Both the position numbers and the translations under genes were made by a program. The notes under the pieces are model-generated. The model worked only from the letters and a program-made list of their open reading frames with translations. It searched no databases and was not told the DNA's origin. From contig OX597820.1 in assembly GCA_951406725.2 (NCBI GenBank), forward strand, positions 119,102,001-119,166,000: a stretch of DNA of 64,000 bases, in the 5' to 3' direction. This document shows positions 5,126-60,982 of this stretch, in pieces (positions within the stretch are counted from its first letter, which is position 1; each line of letters opens with the position of its first letter). Source of the stretch: Octopus vulgaris (taxonomy: Eukaryota).

Positions 5126-5196
5126 GTCAAATTTCTGAAAGAAATAAAAGATTATATGTGTGTCAGTGCTTATATATATAAAGTTATATATATGTA

Positions 5197-5404
5197 TAGT
5201 TAATCCGAACATGAAAACACAGAAAGAAAACACAACAACGCGAGGACGTGGAACCAGTATAGTATTATTGGACGCTCAGGAGAGGGAAAGAAGGAGGATT
5301 TAATGTTTCGAGCGGGGCTCTTCTTCAGAAACATAGGAAAAGGAAAGATCCCAGGAAGGGAAGACGGAGGAAAGAATATCGCCAACGATACACGCGCGGT
5401 CACA
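5197..5404 (-). mobile_element. ~205-bp non-autonomous PLE-terminus-like element (family F) with minimal HHR core
   Basis: Copies at 5859, 39694 and 63604; minus strand reads CTGAAGA-A-GAGC-CCC-GCTC-GAAAC. Confidence 0.7.
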
Positions 5405-5489
5405 TAGTGAATGATATATATATATATATATATATATTATTAGTGAATTGAAGAAATGGAGTTGAACGAAGATTGAACAGAAATCGTTT

Positions 5490-5583
5490 TATTGCATTCT
5501 ACACGTGTTTCGAAAGGCACAATTTACCAAATTCCGAATGAATAATGAGACCATATTGTGTCTTTCTCTTCAGGAAGAAATAG
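5490..5583 (-). ncRNA. Type I hammerhead ribozyme motif with long stem II
   Basis: Minus strand: TTC-CTGAAGA-GAAAGACACAAT...ATTGTGCCTTTC-GAAAC-ACGT-GTA-GAA; stem II 11 of 12 pairs; palindromic loop III; GUA site. Confidence 0.7.
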
Positions 5584-5659: not shown

Positions 5660-5842
5660 ATACAAAATAAGAAAATGGAGAAACACATCTTAATCAATGA
5701 TCAACTACCAGATAATACCCATTCACATAATTTATTAAACCACTAATGTTCATATGTAGTGGTTTAATAAATTATGTGATTGGGTATTATCTGGTAGTTG
5801 ATTATTGATTAAGGTGTATTTCTCCATTTTCTTATTTTGTAT
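5660..5842. repeat. Near-perfect inverted repeat (~85-bp arms)
   Basis: atacaaaataagaaaatggagaaa...aaaccacta mirrored by tagtggttt...tttctccattttcttattttgtat. Confidence 0.9.
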
Positions 5843-5858
5843 ATATATAGTTATATAT

Positions 5859-6068
5859 AGTTAATCCAAACATGAAAACACAAAGAGAAAACACAACAAC
5901 GCGAGGAAGTGGAACAAATATAGTATTATTGGACACTCAGGAAAAAAGGAAAGAAGGAGGGTTTAAAGTTTCGAGCGGAGCTCTTCGTCAGAAACATAGG
6001 AAAAGGAAAGATCCAGAGAAGGGAAGACGGAGGAAAGCAAATCGCCAACGGTACACACGCGGTCACAT
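5859..6068 (-). mobile_element. Family F element copy
   Basis: Similar to 5197-5404; core CTGACGA-A-GAGC-TCC-GCTC-GAAAC at 5968-5991. Confidence 0.7.
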
Positions 6069-6634: not shown

Positions 6635-7165
6635 GTGAGACCCATATTGGAGTACGGGATTCAAGCCTCTTCTCGTTATTACCTCAAAGACACACAGCAT
6701 CTCGAAAGAGTCCAGAAGCTGGCTACCCGCATGGTTCTTGGTCTCAAGAATTTGTCTTATGAAGAAAGGCGAAGACGTTCGACCTTTATTCTCTAGAAAA
6801 ACGACGACGCCGTGGTGATTTCATTCTTGCTCACAACATCATAAGCGGAAAGTGTAACCTCTCGAAGGAGCTGTTCTTCACTCCTGCTCCAGAGCGTCGG
6901 CTGTGGGGTCATTCCGAAAAGCTCTATCTGCGACGATTTCATCTCAATCGAAGGAGAGGGGCTTTCTCCGTCCGGGTTGCGGATCCGTGGAATAAGCTGC
7001 CGGACAAGATGGTGAAGATGCCGACGACCGCTCGGTTCAAAGTCTCCCTTGACCACAAGTGGCCTGAACTCTTTACATGAACACCACCCTGTACATAACT
7101 CCATGTCCCCTTACATGGCACTGCTTTTTTGCTTTTTGAACCAAAAATTTAACTAACTAACTAAC
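6635..7165 (+). mobile_element. CR1-clade LINE 3' fragment (end of ORF2, 3' UTR, (AACT)n tail)
   Basis: Translates with a frameshift to RPILEYG...HLERVQKLATRMVLGLKNLSYEER..LYSLEKRRRRGD...GHSEKL...FSVRVADPWNKLP...FKVSLD, a typical CR1 C-terminus; stop at 7078-7080. Confidence 0.9.
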
Positions 7166-26812: not shown

Positions 26813-27047
26813 GTATGTGTATGTGTTTGTGTGTCTGTGTTTGTCCCCCCCCCCAACATCGCTTGACAACCGATGCTGGTGTGTTTACGTCTCCGTAACT
26901 TAGCGGTTCGGCAAAAGAGACCGATAGAATAAGTACTAGGCTTACAAAGAATACATCCTGGGGTCGATTTGCTCGAATAAAAGGTGGTCCTCCAGCATGG
27001 CCACAGTCAAATGACTGAAACAAGTAAAAGAGTAAAAGAGAGTAAAG
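26613..27047 (+). mobile_element. SINE family B, full length
   Basis: Same layout as the other B copies. Confidence 0.9.
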
Positions 27048-27364
27048 ACTATATACACACATATATATATATACATATATATGTATGCATATATATGTAT
27101 GCATATATACATATATATTTATATGCATATCTATCTATCTATCTATCTGACTGTCTGTCTGTAAGTATGTATGTATGTATTTATAAACCTTATATAGATA
27201 GCCGTATGCTATGTTTACCGCAAAGGAAACCATAATTTTCACTAAATATGACTAGGGAGTTAGAAACACATACAATGCTAGAAATAATGTTGTAGTAGAA
27301 GCATATAATTACATACATATACACTGACAGGGAATATAATCCTCCGAAAACAACGATTGCGAAT

Positions 27365-27415
27365 TCCATATACTGTCGTCAGTTTCGGCAATCTCCGTTG
27401 CCTCATCAGTACGGA
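27365..27415 (-). ncRNA. Canonical type I hammerhead ribozyme
   Basis: Minus strand TCCGTA-CTGATGA-GGCAA-CGGAGA-TTGCC-GAA-ACTG-ACGA-CAGT-A-TATGGA: intact core, stems I/II/III of 6/5/4 bp, GUA site. Confidence 0.85.
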
Positions 27416-27532
27416 TCAGCACGACTTGGAACTTAATTCTCTATCGATAAATAGATAGATAGATACGTACATATACGCACATTCTCCCGAGCACATACAA
27501 ATACACAGACACCCGCTCACACTTACGCACAC

Positions 27533-27843
27533 GGTGGAGGCACATGGCCTAGATGGTTAGAGCAGCGGACTCGTGGTCGAGGGATCGCCGGTTCAAATCT
27601 CAGACCGGGCGATGTGTGTGTTTATGAGCGAAAACACCTAAACTCCACGCGGCTCCAGCAGAAGTTAATGGCGAGCTTCTGCTGACTCTTTCGCTACAAC
27701 TTTCTCTCACTCTTTCCTCCTGCATCTTGCAGCTCACCTGCGACGGACCGGCGTCCCGTCCAGGTGGGGAAACTGCAGGCCAAGAAACCGGGAAACCGGC
27801 CCTTATGAGCCAGGCATGGCTCGAGAAGGAACAAAAACAAAAC
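27533..27843 (+). mobile_element. tRNA-derived SINE family C
   Basis: A/B-box-like head tggcctag.tggttagagc...ggttcaaatc; second copy at 36355; (AACAA)-like tail. Confidence 0.85.
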
Positions 27844-28246
27844 ACTTACGCACACACTCACTCACGCACACACATGCATGCGTAAATATACATTGCTAAA
27901 GCTTTCGTATGAAGGATTATACTAGAACTTCAAAGTAATTCTTTCCAGGACATTTTAGTAAATTGTTTTCCTCTATTTCGAGTATATGTCACCCATGTTA
28001 CGAATTAATTTAAATTAAATGCATCCCATATTGACTTTAACATTCCTATTTATTTAGCTGTGTTTCAACCGTTAGCCAAACATTTTACAAAGACCAATTA
28101 TTATCTTTAAACTTAAAATTCCCAAACCAACATCTTTTCATTGATATTTATCGATTAACTAATTATTTTAACCTATTATAATATTCTATCAGATCACCCC
28201 ATTGCATAACCATTAGTCTAACTTTAAATGTTATTATTCGTTTATT

Positions 28247-32797: not shown

Positions 32798-32999
32798 AAA
32801 CAGACTTACCGCCTCTGATGACTCGTATGTGGGTGTATATATTTCCCAATATATGTGAGTAGCGGTGTGTAAATAATTGTATATTTGAGAATGCGCGGGA
32901 GTTCGAATATATTTAGCCGAATGTGTATTGTGGATAAGTGTGTATACGTGTGTTTCTGTGTGTCTCTGTGTGCGTGCGAGTGAAAGTGCATGTGCGTAT

Positions 33000-33920
33000 G
33001 TATATGTGTGAGTGACGAGTGTGTAAGTCTGACTATGTACGTCTTTCTATGTGTAAATCATTTGTGTGTATATATATATATATGTATATATATGTCTATA
33101 AGCATGCGAACGTTGTATGATTGTTTGTATATATGTGTGTGAGTGACGAGTGTGTAAGTGTGACTATGTACGTCTTTCTATGTGTAAATTATTTGTGTGT
33201 ATATATATGTATATATATATATGTCTATAAGCATGCGAACGTTGTATGATTGTTTGTATATATGTGTGTGAGTGACGAGTGTGTAAGTCTGACTATGTAC
33301 GTCTTTCTATGTGTAAATTATTTGTGTGTATATATATGTATATATATATGTCTATAAGCATGCGAACGTTGTATGATTGTTTGTATATATGTGTGTGAGT
33401 GACGAGTGTGTAAGTGTGACTATGTACGTCTTTTTATGTGTAAATTATTTGTGTGTATATATATATATATGTATATATATGTCTATAAGCATGCGAACGT
33501 TGTATGATTGTTTGTATATATGTGTGTGAGTGACGAGTGTGTAAGTCTGACTATGTACGTCTTTCTATGTGTAAATTATTTGTGTGTATATATATATATA
33601 TGTATATATATATGTCTATAAGCATGCGAACGTTGTATGATTGTTTGTATATATGTGTGTGAGTGACGAGTGTGTAAGTGTGACTATGTACGTCTTTCTA
33701 TGTGTAAATTATTTGTGTGTATATATATGTATATATATATGTCTATAAGCATGCGAACGTTGTATGATTGTTTGTATATATGTGTGTGAGTGACGAGTGT
33801 GTAAGTGTGACTATGTACGTCTTTCTATGTGTAAATCATTTGTGTGTATATATATATATATATGTATATATATGACTATAAGCATGCGAACGTTGTATGA
33901 TTATTTGTATATATGTGTGT
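33000..33920. repeat. Minisatellite, 7 units of 127-133 bp
   Basis: gagtgacgag recurs at 33010, 33141, 33270, 33397, 33528, 33661 and 33788; length varies at an internal (TA)n. Confidence 0.95.
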
Positions 33921-34058
33921 AAGTTGTGAGTTTGAATGTTGTTACCGTTACAGAACACGTATGACTAAGTTAACATGAAGATATGTGTCGTTGAATGTAG
34001 ATGCACGAGTGAGTGGAGGTACGATCTGGCAAGGAATATATCACCGCGCATACGCATT

Positions 34059-35904: not shown

Positions 35905-36354
35905 CTCTAATATATAAGGGGAATATCTATTATCAAAGATCTTTTCAAAGATCTTCAAGTCTCTCTCTTTTTCTTTCTCACACTTCCCCCTCTTTCTCTC
36001 TCTTCTCACTGACCAACTGTACGGCTTCTGCAATGCCAAATCCATTGGAAATTTACTCTCTCATGATGATCACCAGTTGGCTTTCACTTTAGAAAAGCTT
36101 TACGTCTGTAATAACGTTGATCACGACATTAGCTGAACGTTCGATCGAGTCTGACAAATCTTGAAAGAAAATGTCCCATCTACTGGTTGCAACCATCTTC
36201 CATCTTGCTGACGTCACCTTTCTATCTTATGATAGTGACACGTGTTGGGCGTGATCCCACTGCCACACTCTCATTCAACTATAATGTTTCCAGCTTTCTG
36301 TTCAGACACTCAGACCTATATTTGTTATAAAATGACTGAATTGCCACTACATCG

Positions 36355-36658
36355 TTTTTGTTCCTTCTCGAGCCATGCATGGCTCATAACGGCCGGTTTC
36401 CCGGTTTCTTGGCGTATAGGTTCCCCACCTGGACGGGACGCCGGTCCATCGTAGATGAGCTGCAAGATGCAGGAGGAAAGAGTAAGAGAAAGTTGTGGCG
36501 GAAGAGTCAGCAGAAGTTTCGCCATTACCTTCTGCCGGAGCCGCATGGAGCTTAGGTGTTTCGCTCATAAACACACACATCGTCCGGTGTGAGATTCGAA
36601 CCCGCGATTTCTCGACCGCGAATCCGCTGCTCTAACCACTAGGCCGTATGCCTCCACC
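36355..36658 (-). mobile_element. SINE family C
   Basis: Reverse complement of 27533-27843. Confidence 0.85.
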
Positions 36659-37689: not shown

Positions 37690-38336
37690 TGGAAAATACT
37701 TGAGAGAAATCAAAGGGTAAGACAAGTCCAACACCGGGAGGTGGCTAAGAAAAAGTGATCTGAAATGATGCTCTGAGGCATTGATATGCAGCACCTAGAA
37801 ACATGCTCTGAGAACTAATTACACCAAGTTCCAAATAGATAAGAATAGCAAATTGCCCCTTTGCAGGATGTGTGGCAGCGAAAATGAAACAGTCTCTGGA
37901 TCAAAAGGAATACAGGATTGCAAAAAGAAGCATGATAACGATGCTAAGTTTGTTCACTGGAAATTGTATGACAAGTACGATACTGAAACAACTGAGAAAT
38001 GGTTCGAATACAAAATAGAAGGCGTCACCGGGGATATTGAGTATAAGATCTTATGGGCTTTTAAAATCCAGTGTGACTCAGGAATGGATGCTCGGAGACC
38101 AACAGCGCTGTAGTGGTTAAAAGGAAACCAAGCAGTCCTATATTTAAGAGGTGAAGAATTGTGTACATTTTTTTACATTATTTACATTTGACGGATATTT
38201 ATTCTCATCTTGTCCTCATCTGATTTACCCTTCAAAACTTCATCAGGTGTCTTGGGCAAATTTCGAACCTGGGTTCTCATTCCTAAGGTATTTTTCGATA
38301 TTGTTGTTGTTGCTGTTGTTGTTGTTGTTGTTGTTG

Positions 38337-38406
<70 letters not shown>

Positions 38407-38546
38407 CATTATTATTATTATTCAGGTCATTGCTTGGAATCGAACTCGGAATCTTGGGGTTAGTAGCCGTGCTCTTAACCACTACACTATATGCCAGTGG
38501 ACATATCATCATCATCAACAACAGCAACAACAACAACAACAACAAC

Positions 38547-38611
<65 letters not shown>

Positions 38612-39020
38612 CATCGAAAATACATTAGGAAGGAGAACTCAGGTTCGAAATTGCTCCAAGACACCCGATGAAGGCTGGAGGGTATATCAACTGAAACGTT
38701 GTGTTAACAAAAAACAAAATGAGGACAAATATCTGTCCAATTTAAATAATGTAAATAAGGAAACTAAGATCATCGATATATTCATACCTGTGTATGTAGG
38801 AGGTGATGACAAAAACCTGGAAAAGATTGAGAAACATAAAGACGAAATTGCATGAATGTGTAAGAAAATATCTTCCATCCCTTTGGTTGCAGGGTCGCTA
38901 GGATCACCAACCTTAGGTTTCAGGAATATGTCGGAGAAATTGGAATCGACTTGAATGTAGAAGATGCTCAGAAAATTACTCTGTTAGGGAGAGCGACGAT
39001 TTCGAATTTGAAATTGGTAT
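37690..39020 (+). mobile_element. R4/Dong-like non-LTR retrotransposon C-terminal fragment (zinc knuckle and restriction-like endonuclease), interrupted at 38133-38756
   Basis: LRTNY...CRMCGSENETVS...KHD...VHWKL...KILWAFKIQCD..ARRP | IIDIFIP...EKIEK; contains stops and frameshifts. Confidence 0.8.
38133..38756 (-). mobile_element. Composite element G: tRNA-like head, (AAT)n, HHR-bearing PLE-like tail, plus an inverted tail copy
   Basis: Head at 38421-38495 (-); inverted tail at ~38505-38756; 12-bp TSD aaggaaaccaag/aaggaaactaag. Confidence 0.8.
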
Positions 39021-41930: not shown

Positions 41931-42309
41931 AGCACTCCGTCGGTTACGACGACGAGGGTTCCGGTTGATCCGATCAACGGAACAGCCTGCTCGTGAAATT
42001 AACGTGTAAGTAGCTGAACACTCCACAGACACGTGCACCCTTAACGTAGTTCTGGGGGATATTCAGCGTGACACAGAGAGTGACAAGGCCGGCCCTTTGA
42101 AATACAGGTACAACAGAAACAGGAAGTAAGAGTGAGAGAAAGTTGTGGTGAAAGAGTACAGCAGGGCTCACCACCATCCCTGCCGGAGCCTCGTGGACCT
42201 TTAGGTGTTTTCGCTCAATAAACACTCACAACGCCCGGTCTGGGAATCGAAACCGCGATCCTACGACCGCGAGTCCGCTGCCCTAACCACTGGGCCATTG
42301 TGCCTCCAC
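41931..42309 (-). mobile_element. tRNA-derived SINE family D
   Basis: Head shared with family C, distinct tail ending gtcgtaaccgacggagtgc; further copies at 54721 and 60483. Confidence 0.9.
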
Positions 42310-46678: not shown

Positions 46679-46761
46679 CTCTCAACACAAGTTTCGAAGA
46701 CTGCATACTCTTAATTCCGAAGGAATAAAGGGTGCATTATGCCATCTTCTCATCAGGAAAG
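46679..46761 (-). ncRNA. Type I hammerhead ribozyme motif, long stem II family (second copy)
   Basis: Minus strand CTTTC-CTGATGA-GAAGATGGCATA...TATGCAGTCTTC-GAAAC-TTGT-GTT-GAGAG. Confidence 0.7.
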
Positions 46762-48303: not shown

Positions 48304-48481
48304 ATGTACATTATTTACATTATTTACATTTGACGGATATTTGTCCTCATCTTCTTTTTTGTTAACACAACCTTTTGGTTAATATACTCTCTAGCCTTCA
48401 TCAGGTGTCTTGGGGAAATTTCGTACCTGGATTCCCATTCCTAAGGTATTTTTCTATCTTCTTCTTCTTCTTCTTCTTCTT

Positions 48482-48576
<95 letters not shown>

Positions 48577-48592
48577 CATTTTATTATTATTA

Positions 48593-48629
<37 letters not shown>

Positions 48630-48672
48630 CATTTTATTATTATTATTATTATTATTATTATCATTATCATCA

Positions 48673-48711
<39 letters not shown>

Positions 48712-48713
48712 CA

Positions 48714-48761
<48 letters not shown>

Positions 48762-48762
48762 C

Positions 48763-48793
<31 letters not shown>

Positions 48794-48921
48794 TCACTGT
48801 CTGAAATCGAACTCGGAATGCTGGGGTGAGTAGCTCGCGCTCTTGACCACTACGCCATATCCGTCAAATGTAAAAAGTGTAAATACTATACATAATTCCT
48901 CATCTCTTAGATATAGAATTG
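48304..48921 (-). mobile_element. Composite element G, second copy
   Basis: tRNA-like head at ~48788-48860 (-), (AAT/AAG)n, same tail, short inverted 3' end at ~48858-48921; TSD aaagtagaatgt/aaagtagactgt. Confidence 0.8.
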
Positions 48922-54720: not shown

Positions 54721-55089
54721 AGCACTCCGTCGGTTACGACGATGAGGGTCCCAGCTGATACGATCAACGGAACAGCTTGCTCGTGGAATTAACGTGCAAG
54801 TGACTGAGCATTCCACAGACACGTGTACCCCTAACGTAGTTCTCGGGGATATTCAGCGTGACACAGAGAGTGACAAGGCCGGCCCTTTGAAATACAGGTA
54901 CAACAGAAACAGGAAGTAAGAGTGAGAGAAAGTTGTGGTGAAAGAGTACAGCAGGGATCACCACCATCCCCTGCCAGAGCCTCGTGGAGCTTTAGGTGTT
55001 TTCGCTCAATAAACACTTACAACGCCCGGTCTGGGAATCGAAACCGCGATCCTATGACCGCGAGTCCGCTGCCCTAACCACTGGGCCAT
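54721..55089 (-). mobile_element. SINE family D
   Basis: Closely similar to 41931-42309. Confidence 0.9.
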
Positions 55090-55609: not shown

Positions 55610-55610
<1 letters not shown>

Positions 55611-55818
55611 TAGATCGCCATGATTGATCGTTAGCCACTACATACATTTTTTTCTCTCCATGTTTCTCTCTTTGTTTTTTTTCTGTGACCCTTTCTGTAG
55701 AAGAGCGTAGGCTCGAAACGTAACAGACTTTTTCTATTCCCTGAGCGTTATACTAATACATCTGTTTGTTTTGTACACCACCTGTCTTCGTCTTTTGTTT
55801 TTTTCGTAAACTCTCCCT
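55610..55818 (+). mobile_element. Family H PLE terminal-repeat-like element
   Basis: CTTT-CTGTAGA-AGAGC-GTAG-GCTC-GAAAC-GTA at 55691-55722. Confidence 0.65.
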
Positions 55819-55898
55819 ATATATATATATAATATGAAGGAATATTATTCCAAACTTACAGGGGAAAATTCAATTTAGAAATAATAAATCAAATTTCA

Positions 55899-56894: not shown

Positions 56895-58498
56895 GAAGAA
56901 CAAGAGACGAAGACAGGTGTATTAGTTTGATGCTCGGGAAGGTGAGAAAGTCTTCTACGTTTCGAGCCTACATTCTTCAGCAGAAAGGAACACGAGGAAA
57001 TAAACAGAGAAGGAATAAAAAAGATCTTGTGAATTTAGCGCTCAATCATGGAGACTGGTTAGAAAAAGGCAGTTGGATAGGAGAGCTGGGAAGAAGGGCA
57101 GATAATAAAGTACTGGTGATCCTAAAACTAAGGTGCGCTTGCGTATGTGTATGTGAGAGTGTGTGTGTATGTGTGGGTATGGGCTGGTGATTTTGACGTG
57201 TGTATGTGTGCGTGTAACTTGACGTGTGGATATGTGCACCTGTAATATGTGGGTGAATAGACGATGGTGTGGGTGTGGGAAGGTGGTCACTGCTAATGTG
57301 TGCTCCTGGAGGCGTTGGAATGAGAATGTGGTGGTGTTGTAACGAGGATGTAGGGGTGAGGTTGTGGGGTGAGGTGATGATGTGGGGTGAGTATGGAGGT
57401 GGAGGTGCCGGGGATAGGGGTAGGTATGTGTGGGGTGGATGGAGGCTGTATCAATGAAAGGAGAAGGTGCGTAGGAGTGAAGAGAGGAAGCAGGTGTCAG
57501 GGCAAAAGAGGGGAGAGCGAAGAGAAGAAGTAGGTATCAGATGAAGAGGGGAGGGGAGTTGAGCCCATATGGTACAAAGAAGCGAAGAGAGAAGATTAAT
57601 TCCGGTTCACGACAAAGGTGGGAGTCTGGATGGCCCCTGTGCAAAGATTGTCCGAATACAAACGGGTGTTGTAATTAATGAATGACCAGTTGAGCGGAAA
57701 TGACGCTAGACCGAGCGCCATTGCCGAGCCTAATGTCTCGGAGAGGCGCCGCGAAGCGATCAGCCAAGCGGCATCCCGTTTGACCGATGTACAGAGAAGG
57801 GCAGAAATAGCAGGAGATGAAGAAAATGAGGTTGGTAAAAGTGCAGGTAAAGGAGTCAATGATATGATAGGGAAGATGATGGGTGCCTGTGAGAAGGGTG
57901 GTGTTGGAGAGGCAGGGACAAGTGCGGCAGTGTGGGCGTGAGCAGTGGACCGAGCCAGCTTGGGAGATTAGGCTAGGGAAGAGACTGTGAACCAGGACTA
58001 TTGCTGGAATCGAACTGGAGTCACCGGAAGGCTCGCAGAATTGTGCGTTGGAGAAGGATGGAGGGGTTGTAGGTGAGAGGAAACGGGAGATGAGCAGCAG
58101 CAGGGCGTGTGCAAGGAGAGATCAGAGGCACAGCCCACGGAACGTGCTCTAGCAAGGGCGGTGTGGATAGTGGTGAGAGGATATCCACGAAGGTTGAAGT
58201 GGCGAGTTATGAGTTGAGACAGAGTCTCAAAGTCATGGTTGTCACTGCAGAACCTGCGCAGACGGAGGAATTAGGTTTAGGGGATGGAGAGCATGATGTG
58301 GGTAGGGTGGGGGGAGGAGAAGTTGAGGTATGAGTGTAAATCCGTGTTTGTGGTGGATGGAGGTAGGAGTTGCGTATGTTGACCGAAATGTCAAGAAAGG
58401 CGACGGAAGTGTTGGATATGGTGCAGGAGAAATGGAGGGCAGGATGGAAGGAATGGATAAAAAAGAGGAAGGAGTCTAGTTGTTGCAGGAAAAAAAGC
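56895..58498 (-). mobile_element. Penelope-like element (Neptune type), 5'-truncated and decayed: end of RT, CxxC linker, GIY-YIG endonuclease, terminal repeat
   Basis: VAFLDISV...HTYLNFSSPHP...FLRLRRFCS...RGYP; CRTC; DSFTCTFTNLIFFISCYFCPSLYIGQTGCRLADRF; terminal VPYGLN; family H repeat at ~56895-57050. Confidence 0.9.
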
Positions 58499-58523
58499 AA
58501 ATATATATATATACACATATATA

Positions 58524-60482: not shown

Positions 60483-60842
60483 AGTCGGTTACGATGGCGA
60501 GGATTCCAGTTGATTCAGTCAACGGAACAGCCTGCTCGTGAAATTAACCTGCGATTGCTTGAGCACTCCACAGTCACGTGTACCCTTAACGTAGTTCTCG
60601 GGGAAATTCAGTGTGACAAGGCTGGCCCTTTGAAATATAGGTGCAACAGAAACAGGAAGAAAGAGTGGGAGAAAGTTATGGTGAAATAATACAGCAGAGT
60701 TAGTTACGACCCCCTGCCACAGCCTCGTGGACGTTTAGGTGTTTCCACCCAATAAACATTCACAATGCACGGTCTAGGAATCGAAACCGCTATCCTATGA
60801 CCATGAGTACGCTACCCTAACCACTGGCCATTGCGCCTCCAC
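60483..60842 (-). mobile_element. SINE family D, diverged
   Basis: Same layout as 41931-42309. Confidence 0.85.
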
Positions 60843-60982
60843 TATATATGTATGTGTGTGTACATAAGCATGAGTTAGCTTTGAGTTAGCTTTTACGTAT
60901 GCATGTGATGATCACCTGAATTTGTGTATTTGTTTCTCATTGGGTAGGGTGTTCGTCGTGTGGGTTTGCTGGTCGGTCTGTG

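Follow-up and report, generated by a model that had tools for sequence, protein, structure and literature searches.

The 51-nt motif at positions 27365-27415 (minus strand) of the window, the 64,000-nucleotide (64-kb) stretch of Octopus vulgaris DNA that was analysed, is, judged from its letters, a real type I hammerhead motif with a genuine helix III, for which self-cleavage is predicted. As read from the contigs of public sequencing runs, it is one diverged copy within a many-copy repeat family, not a unique stand-alone ribozyme. Worded broadly, the locus is best read as a copy, solo and decaying, of either a non-LTR retrozyme or a Penelope-pLTR-type element. More narrowly, and with moderate confidence, we favour a solo decaying monomer of a non-autonomous, Penelope-mobilised retrozyme-type element that is predicted to cleave poorly in its native flanks. 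If so, the locus would be an ordinary worn insertion that marks a hammerhead repeat family.

Along the minus strand, from 27415 to 27365, the motif reads TCCGTA CTGATGA GGCAA CGGAGA TTGCC GAA ACTG ACGA CAGT A TATGGA. Its parts are given below.

27365-27415, minus: type I hammerhead (sequence; descriptor scan with 0/300 shuffles; 51-mer fold)
27415-27410 with 27370-27365, minus: strands of helix I
27409-27403, minus: CUGAUGA box
27402-27387, minus: helix II
27386-27384, minus: GAA
27383-27372, minus: helix III
27371, minus: A17, with the predicted cut at 27371/27370

The core is intact and helix I is open. Helix I has 6 bp including one G-U pair (UCCGUA/UAUGGA), helix II has 5 bp and the 6-nt loop CGGAGA, and helix III has 4 bp and the 4-nt loop ACGA. 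The triplet is GUA, and cleavage is predicted between 27371 and 27370. Letters, coordinates, helix lengths, triplet and cut are all as the original prediction had given them, by sequence, descriptor and 51-mer fold. When both strands of the window were scanned with a strict type I descriptor, 27365-27415 was the sole match; the same descriptor found 0 sites on both strands of 300 block-wise dinucleotide shuffles. Self-BLAST of the window also bore out the claim that the motif is single-copy there.

At minimum energy (-11.0 kcal/mol) the 51-mer takes the hammerhead fold. Its stability is unremarkable (z -1.39), 20 of 200 shuffles being equally good. When the 71-mer was folded, stem I continued beyond the internal loop, as had been proposed, in an alternative 3-bp register. 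Rfam gave no match at gathering score over the whole 64 kb. Searched in E-value mode, 27200-27850 gave four weak matches, among which only Hammerhead_3 was relevant (16.9 bits, E 1.2, over the core), and HH9 and HH10 gave no match to the motif up to E 10. As the Hammerhead_3 model has a different topology, a weak or absent Rfam match is no evidence against the motif. The 3' A of loop II is present; the first base of loop I is A and the next is U, as against the loop I 5' U expected for the loop-loop contact. It may be noted that mussel retrozymes, as described in the available part of PMC7229834, also lack most of the loop I-loop II contact bases and still cleave.

The stretch was contained in 7 of 24 listed sequencing runs (5 studies, 4 organism labels, none listed as RNA). 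Four of these (X2, X4, X6 and X7), all assembled as contigs, were aligned to 27181-27525 at 80% likeness. Summed contig depth, which is not a copy number, was compared between a core bin (27385-27396) and a single-copy flank bin (27181-27192). It came to 27209 against 43 for X2, 2738 against 5.4 for X4 and 1366 against 4.6 for X7, so that the core stood 300-630 times above the flank in the three runs covering both; for X6 the core depth was 121 and the flank bin was uncovered. Uncovered stretches in X4, X6 and X7 were not counted as absent. One variant at core base 27376 was carried by 44, 33, 28 and 6 distinct contigs in the four runs, and at 27258 there were 58, 52, 30 and 4 distinct variant contigs (30-58 in X7, X4 and X2). 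Although depth gives no copy number, such counts at single positions far exceed what one diploid locus could supply, and hence the family is multi-copy. Long aligned paralogues diverge by 11-21 letters across 65-120 nt, and some paralogous contigs continue for 500-780 nt beyond the aligned piece.

The original prediction had regarded the ribozyme as stand-alone and part of no element. This part of it did not hold, as the motif sits in a multi-copy unit of ~240 bp, with dozens of variant contigs per run.

27197-27440, minus: whole repeat unit, ~240 bp, boundaries approximate (loose ends by eye; microsatellites on both sides)
27227-27290, minus: the unit's second multi-copy block, which lies 80-145 nt downstream from the cut site (X2 depth 6713, against 43 in the flank)
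27050-27196, no strand: TA-rich microsatellite bordering the unit on its 3' side
27441-27482, no strand: (TATC)n/TA-rich microsatellite bordering the unit on its 5' side, of very high repeat depth in the run contigs

The second block is linked to the core by one contig in each of three runs, among the joins listed. By eye, the loose ends found before 27227 are similar to 27197-27226, and 27416-27437 is matched by those behind 27415. Since the likeness thus reaches ~27197 and ~27437, between TA-rich microsatellites, the unit was put at ~240 bp. The only unit frame among those scanned (26981-27232, overlapping the unit end) had no Pfam match. A many-copy, small, non-coding repeat with a type I hammerhead is thus what was found, and its size lies within the 170-400 nt of animal retrozymes (PMC7229834, available part). 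At the locus the unit is solo, with no tandem array, and no joint from unit end back to unit start appeared among the joins listed in the four runs. A target-site duplication, which in retrozymes is >4 bp when present (PMC7229834), was not evident by eye; both unit ends abut microsatellites.

Two other fully paired versions of helix I occur in the family, UCCUUA/UAAGGA and UCUUAA/UUAAGA. Compared with the focal UCCGUA/UAUGGA, 1 and 3 of the 6 pairs are altered on both sides; the two arms, left and right, were matched by eye across table rows and not on single contigs. The covariation expected among relatives of a type I hammerhead was thus found for helix I; helices II and III had no both-side changes among the variants listed. 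Family copies have a 6-bp distal stem past the internal loop, and the commoner subfamily has an additional 7-bp complement beyond it, so that the family ribozyme would cap a long stem I. The family base at 27376 makes helix III and its loop a perfect 12-nt palindrome. This base accounts for 5105 of 5619 of the depth in X2, 555 of 612 in X4, 462 of 462 in X7 and 52 of 55 in X6, i.e., ~91% in both X2 and X4 and the whole of it in X7. Another set of loose ends points to a palindrome of 14 nt. According to the available part of PMC4209133, a palindromic loop III marks dimer-capable animal hammerheads. If the preferred reading is true, the family would comprise two or more covarying subfamilies, with a helix III that is palindromic throughout and unusually stable, and could act as monomer or dimer.

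The focal copy departs from its family in the regions listed below.

27376-27379, minus: loop III, non-palindromic (ACGA) in the focal copy; family contigs carry the palindrome-making base
27356-27425, minus: distal stem I past the internal loop (window against run contigs, by eye)
27345-27360, minus: downstream decoy arm, which pairs with helix II and its loop in predicted folds of 81- to 101-mers
27426-27433, minus: upstream decoy, whose predicted partner in folds of 27362-27440 and of blocked constructs is the 3' strand of helix I

In the family register, the focal distal stem retains 5 of 6 pairs (two of them wobbles) and has one mismatch, and pair 3 of helix I is also a wobble. By eye, from the loose ends behind 27415, the focal copy appears to lack ~10 nt of the family upstream arm, and it is there that the upstream decoy is located. 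The bases 27360 and 27358 are locus-specific, the family differing at both; with them, the downstream arm is predicted to form a perfect helix of 6 bp with the 3' strand of helix II. In the folds, the hammerhead had a predicted share of 0.056 for 51 nt and 0.042 for 71 nt, which fell to 0.00012 for 27340-27440 (101 nt) and to 0.00001 for 27200-27445 (246 nt). Native flanks had no advantage over shuffled flanks: at six flank lengths, 141-260 of 300 shuffles did better. Blocking the downstream decoy in silico did not restore the hammerhead fold, because the upstream decoy takes over.

Secondary-structure energies omit loop-loop and tertiary contacts and Mg2+, and the folds had no known-active hammerhead as a control; they thus lower the expectation of activity for the focal copy and do not exclude it. 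The motif had been expected to work as a monomer. For the isolated 51-71-mer this may stand, and we think it likely that it would cleave in vitro, while 27340-27440 folds otherwise in silico and efficient cleavage in the native flanks is doubtful. A dominant alternative fold, the outcome named beforehand as speaking against the ribozyme, is what was predicted for 27340-27440, with a hammerhead share of 0.0001 and the hammerhead fold 5.6 kcal/mol above the minimum. In the available part of bioRxiv 10.64898/2026.07.22.740005, self-cleavage is reported for just 1 of 9 genomic dimers assayed. A locus contig of X6, a run guessed to be RNA, covers 27289-27444 at depth 3.6 and spans the cut site, a contig being unable to show RNA ends.

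The preferred reading, that of a solo retrozyme monomer, would run as follows, its steps being drawn from animal retrozymes as described in PMC7229834 (available part). Tandem source copies would be transcribed, their hammerheads would excise monomers from the transcript, a host ligase would circularise these, and Penelope machinery would insert copies, of which the focal copy may be one. After insertion it would have lost both the palindrome of loop III and its upstream arm, so that the downstream arm could mispair with helix II. It has no second hammerhead nearby and would be unable to release a monomer circle. Solo retrozyme monomers are common and dispersed, and in Xenopus retrozymes are related to Penelope pLTRs (bioRxiv 10.64898/2026.07.22.740005, available part). 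Because the focal unit has no detectable sequence in common with the minimal-hammerhead units of the window described below, its tie to Penelope machinery is put forward by analogy. Retrozyme expression yields linear as well as circular RNA that is highly self-paired (PMC7229834). The focal unit had no excess of self-pairing over shuffles (z +0.45 and +0.85), and a rod-like fold of the ~240-bp unit was rejected, as it did not rise above them.

The window is ~36% GC non-coding DNA, rich in microsatellites and short repeats, and its repeats have a cephalopod look. The original prediction had mentioned minimal motifs elsewhere in it, and three were confirmed (5328 and 5991, minus; 55695, plus).

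5190-5420, minus: minimal hammerhead-like unit, motif at 5328
5860-6065, minus: minimal hammerhead-like unit, motif at 5991
55610-55820, plus: minimal hammerhead-like unit, motif at 55695, one core base changed
57550-58500, minus: broken Penelope-like frame with an RT-thumb-like part, a CxxxxCxxC linker and a GIY-YIG-like part, by eye

The three minimal units are 200-250 bp long, lie between (TA)n tracts and have an extra A before a 4-bp helix II; they are likely solo Penelope pLTRs. The last 64 residues of the broken frame matched, with a score of 0.94 and 205 shared features, a cluster in which 20% of members have the GIY-YIG family; the frame is bounded at 58501 by a SINE-like insertion. 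From these units and this frame, it is likely that Penelope-like elements exist in the genome. When the focal unit was compared with the three minimal units, no shared sequence was detectable, as 39-66 of 200 shuffles reached the score.

These neighbours bear on the strongest rival, in which an autonomous Penelope-like element with a canonical hammerhead in its pLTR was inserted in 5'-truncated form and left the focal copy as a solo pLTR, the family having no tandem circle-forming arrays of its own. Its microsatellite flanks and layout do resemble those of the three minimal units, and the upstream loose ends extend for a median of 71-172 nt (X7, X4, X2). Two opposite-strand joints at 27415 (X2 and X4, among the joins listed) agree with the inverted truncated pLTRs typical of Penelope-like elements (PMC8557442, available part), but they rest on a single contig each. 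One terminal repeat is retained in most insertions, as far as the available part of bioRxiv 10.64898/2026.07.22.740005 goes. Animal Penelope pLTR motifs, however, are mostly minimal, in that an additional base precedes helix II and helix III is slight or absent, according to the part of PMC4209133 available. The three other window motifs have this character; the focal motif does not, as it has no extra base before helix II and has a full helix III. Moreover, no RT frame adjoins the unit, and no RT plus GIY-YIG frame attached to it was found at the locus. We consider this rival unlikely.

A copy derived from the family could also have been taken over by a host transcript as a domesticated element that cleaves itself in cis, for which the intronic amniote RECK hammerheads are a precedent (PMC6155905, available part). 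The fully intact core agrees with this, as do the both-side changes that preserve pairing at helix I pair 3 (27412/27368) and at the distal pair 27421/27360. These two focal pairs differ from the family on both sides yet pair as wobbles. Together with the intact core they speak against simple decay in the preferred reading, as pure neutral decay would not predict them well, and their retention could reflect an older subfamily origin or selection. The orthologous locus was found in organisms B and C and partly in D, with 0, 1 and 1 differences (X2, X4 and X7; X7 up to 27359 only). The flanks are, however, as alike as the motif among these organisms, so that constraint on the motif cannot be measured from the orthologues. 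One X6 contig of low depth (3.6), from another sample, seems to have the family base at 27412 alone, which would put a U-U mismatch into helix I and is possibly an error. For host genes, 251 stop-free frames of at least 55 aa passed a complexity filter; the longest 150 were taken and 18 repeat-derived ones dropped. As 0 of the 132 frames scanned in the window reached the Pfam cut-off, no host gene was found, although short exons would escape such a search. The native flanks also do not favour the hammerhead fold. Domestication is improbable on these grounds. A variant, slightly less probable still, has a mobile hammerhead caught in mid-domestication, in which loss of the palindrome (and with it dimer pairing), retention of helix I and gain of two decoys would have made a monomer-only, fold-gated self-cleavage switch of a host transcript, an invertebrate counterpart of the amniote RECK ribozyme.

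A chance match to the hammerhead pattern, with which the ordinary fold energy (z -1.39) and the silence of Rfam at gathering score would agree, was rejected as having almost no probability, since 0 of 300 shuffles match the descriptor, family depth in the sequencing-run contigs is highest on the catalytic core, and stem I covaries.

Metazoan non-LTR retrozymes measure 220-245 bp in the coral Acropora millepora and 350-390 bp in the mussel Mytilus galloprovincialis (PMC7229834, available part, for this comparison). Like them, the focal family is a small, non-coding, many-copy repeat of <50% GC with a canonical type I hammerhead, and occurs alongside Penelope-like elements with minimal motifs. 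They differ in having tandem arrays, circular RNA, self-cleavage and, when present, target-site duplications, none of which was seen for the focal copy; it is solo, and its helix III has 4 bp against the usual 1-2 bp. It also resembles the solo retrozyme monomers, which are dispersed single units of hammerhead repeat families and have been proposed as offspring that do not transpose and are related to Penelope pLTRs (bioRxiv 10.64898/2026.07.22.740005); that study covers 31 vertebrates and 4 invertebrates, its available part making no mention of molluscs or cephalopods. With Penelope pLTR hammerheads it shares type I topology, the palindromic loop III of its family, microsatellite flanks and many solo copies, and differs from them in having no extra base before helix II, a full helix III and no adjoining RT/GIY-YIG frame (PMC4209133 and PMC8557442, available parts). 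As in Schistosoma mansoni Sm-alpha, the motif is type I and its loop II, a hexaloop ending in a 3' A and having a C:A opposition (CGGAGA focal, CAAAUA Sm-alpha), faces the stem I internal loop. Unlike in Sm-alpha, the base after the 6-bp helix I is A, not a U pairing with the loop II adenine, and the opposite strand does not end in a pyrimidine (PMC2632901, available part). A lone canonical type I motif at its locus is shared with the amniote ultraconserved intronic hammerheads (RECK and others), from which it differs by its many paralogues, by the absence of an HH9/HH10 match to E 10 and by the lack of a host gene in our search (PMC6155905, available part).

Multi-copy type I hammerheads are already known in molluscs, including squid, and the focal family adds to a known kind. 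They number ~5000 in the mussel and 1508 in the coral (PMC7229834), and for the giant squid genome 235 Rfam Hammerhead_1 loci are listed without analysis in the part of PMC6962438 available. No description of a cephalopod retrozyme family was found in the mostly open-access literature searched, and the supplement of PMC7229834 may already list one. The family could serve for testing whether invertebrate retrozymes originate from Penelope pLTRs, an origin for which Xenopus is the only case shown, as far as the available part of bioRxiv 10.64898/2026.07.22.740005 goes.

Searched with the exact 28-nt core pattern, metagenome and viral contigs gave 0 loci. A looser pattern gave 0 in viral contigs and 14 loci in metagenomes, which were rejected as relatives because 0 of 14 share the focal loop II or helix III. 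Six of these (L001, L004, L006, L008, L011 and L013) have a common hammerhead-like core followed by an A/T-rich inverted repeat, and are unrelated to the focal family.

Some further features of the window were noted. A decayed minimal hammerhead-like motif lies near 56965-56990, downstream of the broken Penelope-like frame, and a near-perfect inverted repeat of ~190 bp (5660-5850) lies between two of the minimal-hammerhead units. Looser hammerhead-like matches at 5497-5576 and 46679-46761 (both minus) have loop II of 45 and 42 nt and a helix III of 2 bp, and are alike by eye. At 32996-33924 a 127-bp unit is repeated in tandem (7.1 copies, 94% matches), and no hammerhead core was found within this array. 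Frames 6763-7080 and 37799-38113 (both plus), which have no Pfam match, resemble what we take to be C-terminal ends of LINE reverse transcriptases. A SINE-like repeat (27533-27838) lies 120 bp upstream of the hammerhead in the hammerhead sense, a shared orientation not being implied, and has copies at 36354-36658, 42120-42309, 54910-55089 and 60653-60858; an ARAGORN search returned 0 tRNAs. Two related repeats, 38138-38758 and 48305-48916, have long (AAT)n/(TTA)n tracts, and the first has a CUGAUGA box at 38246 (minus).
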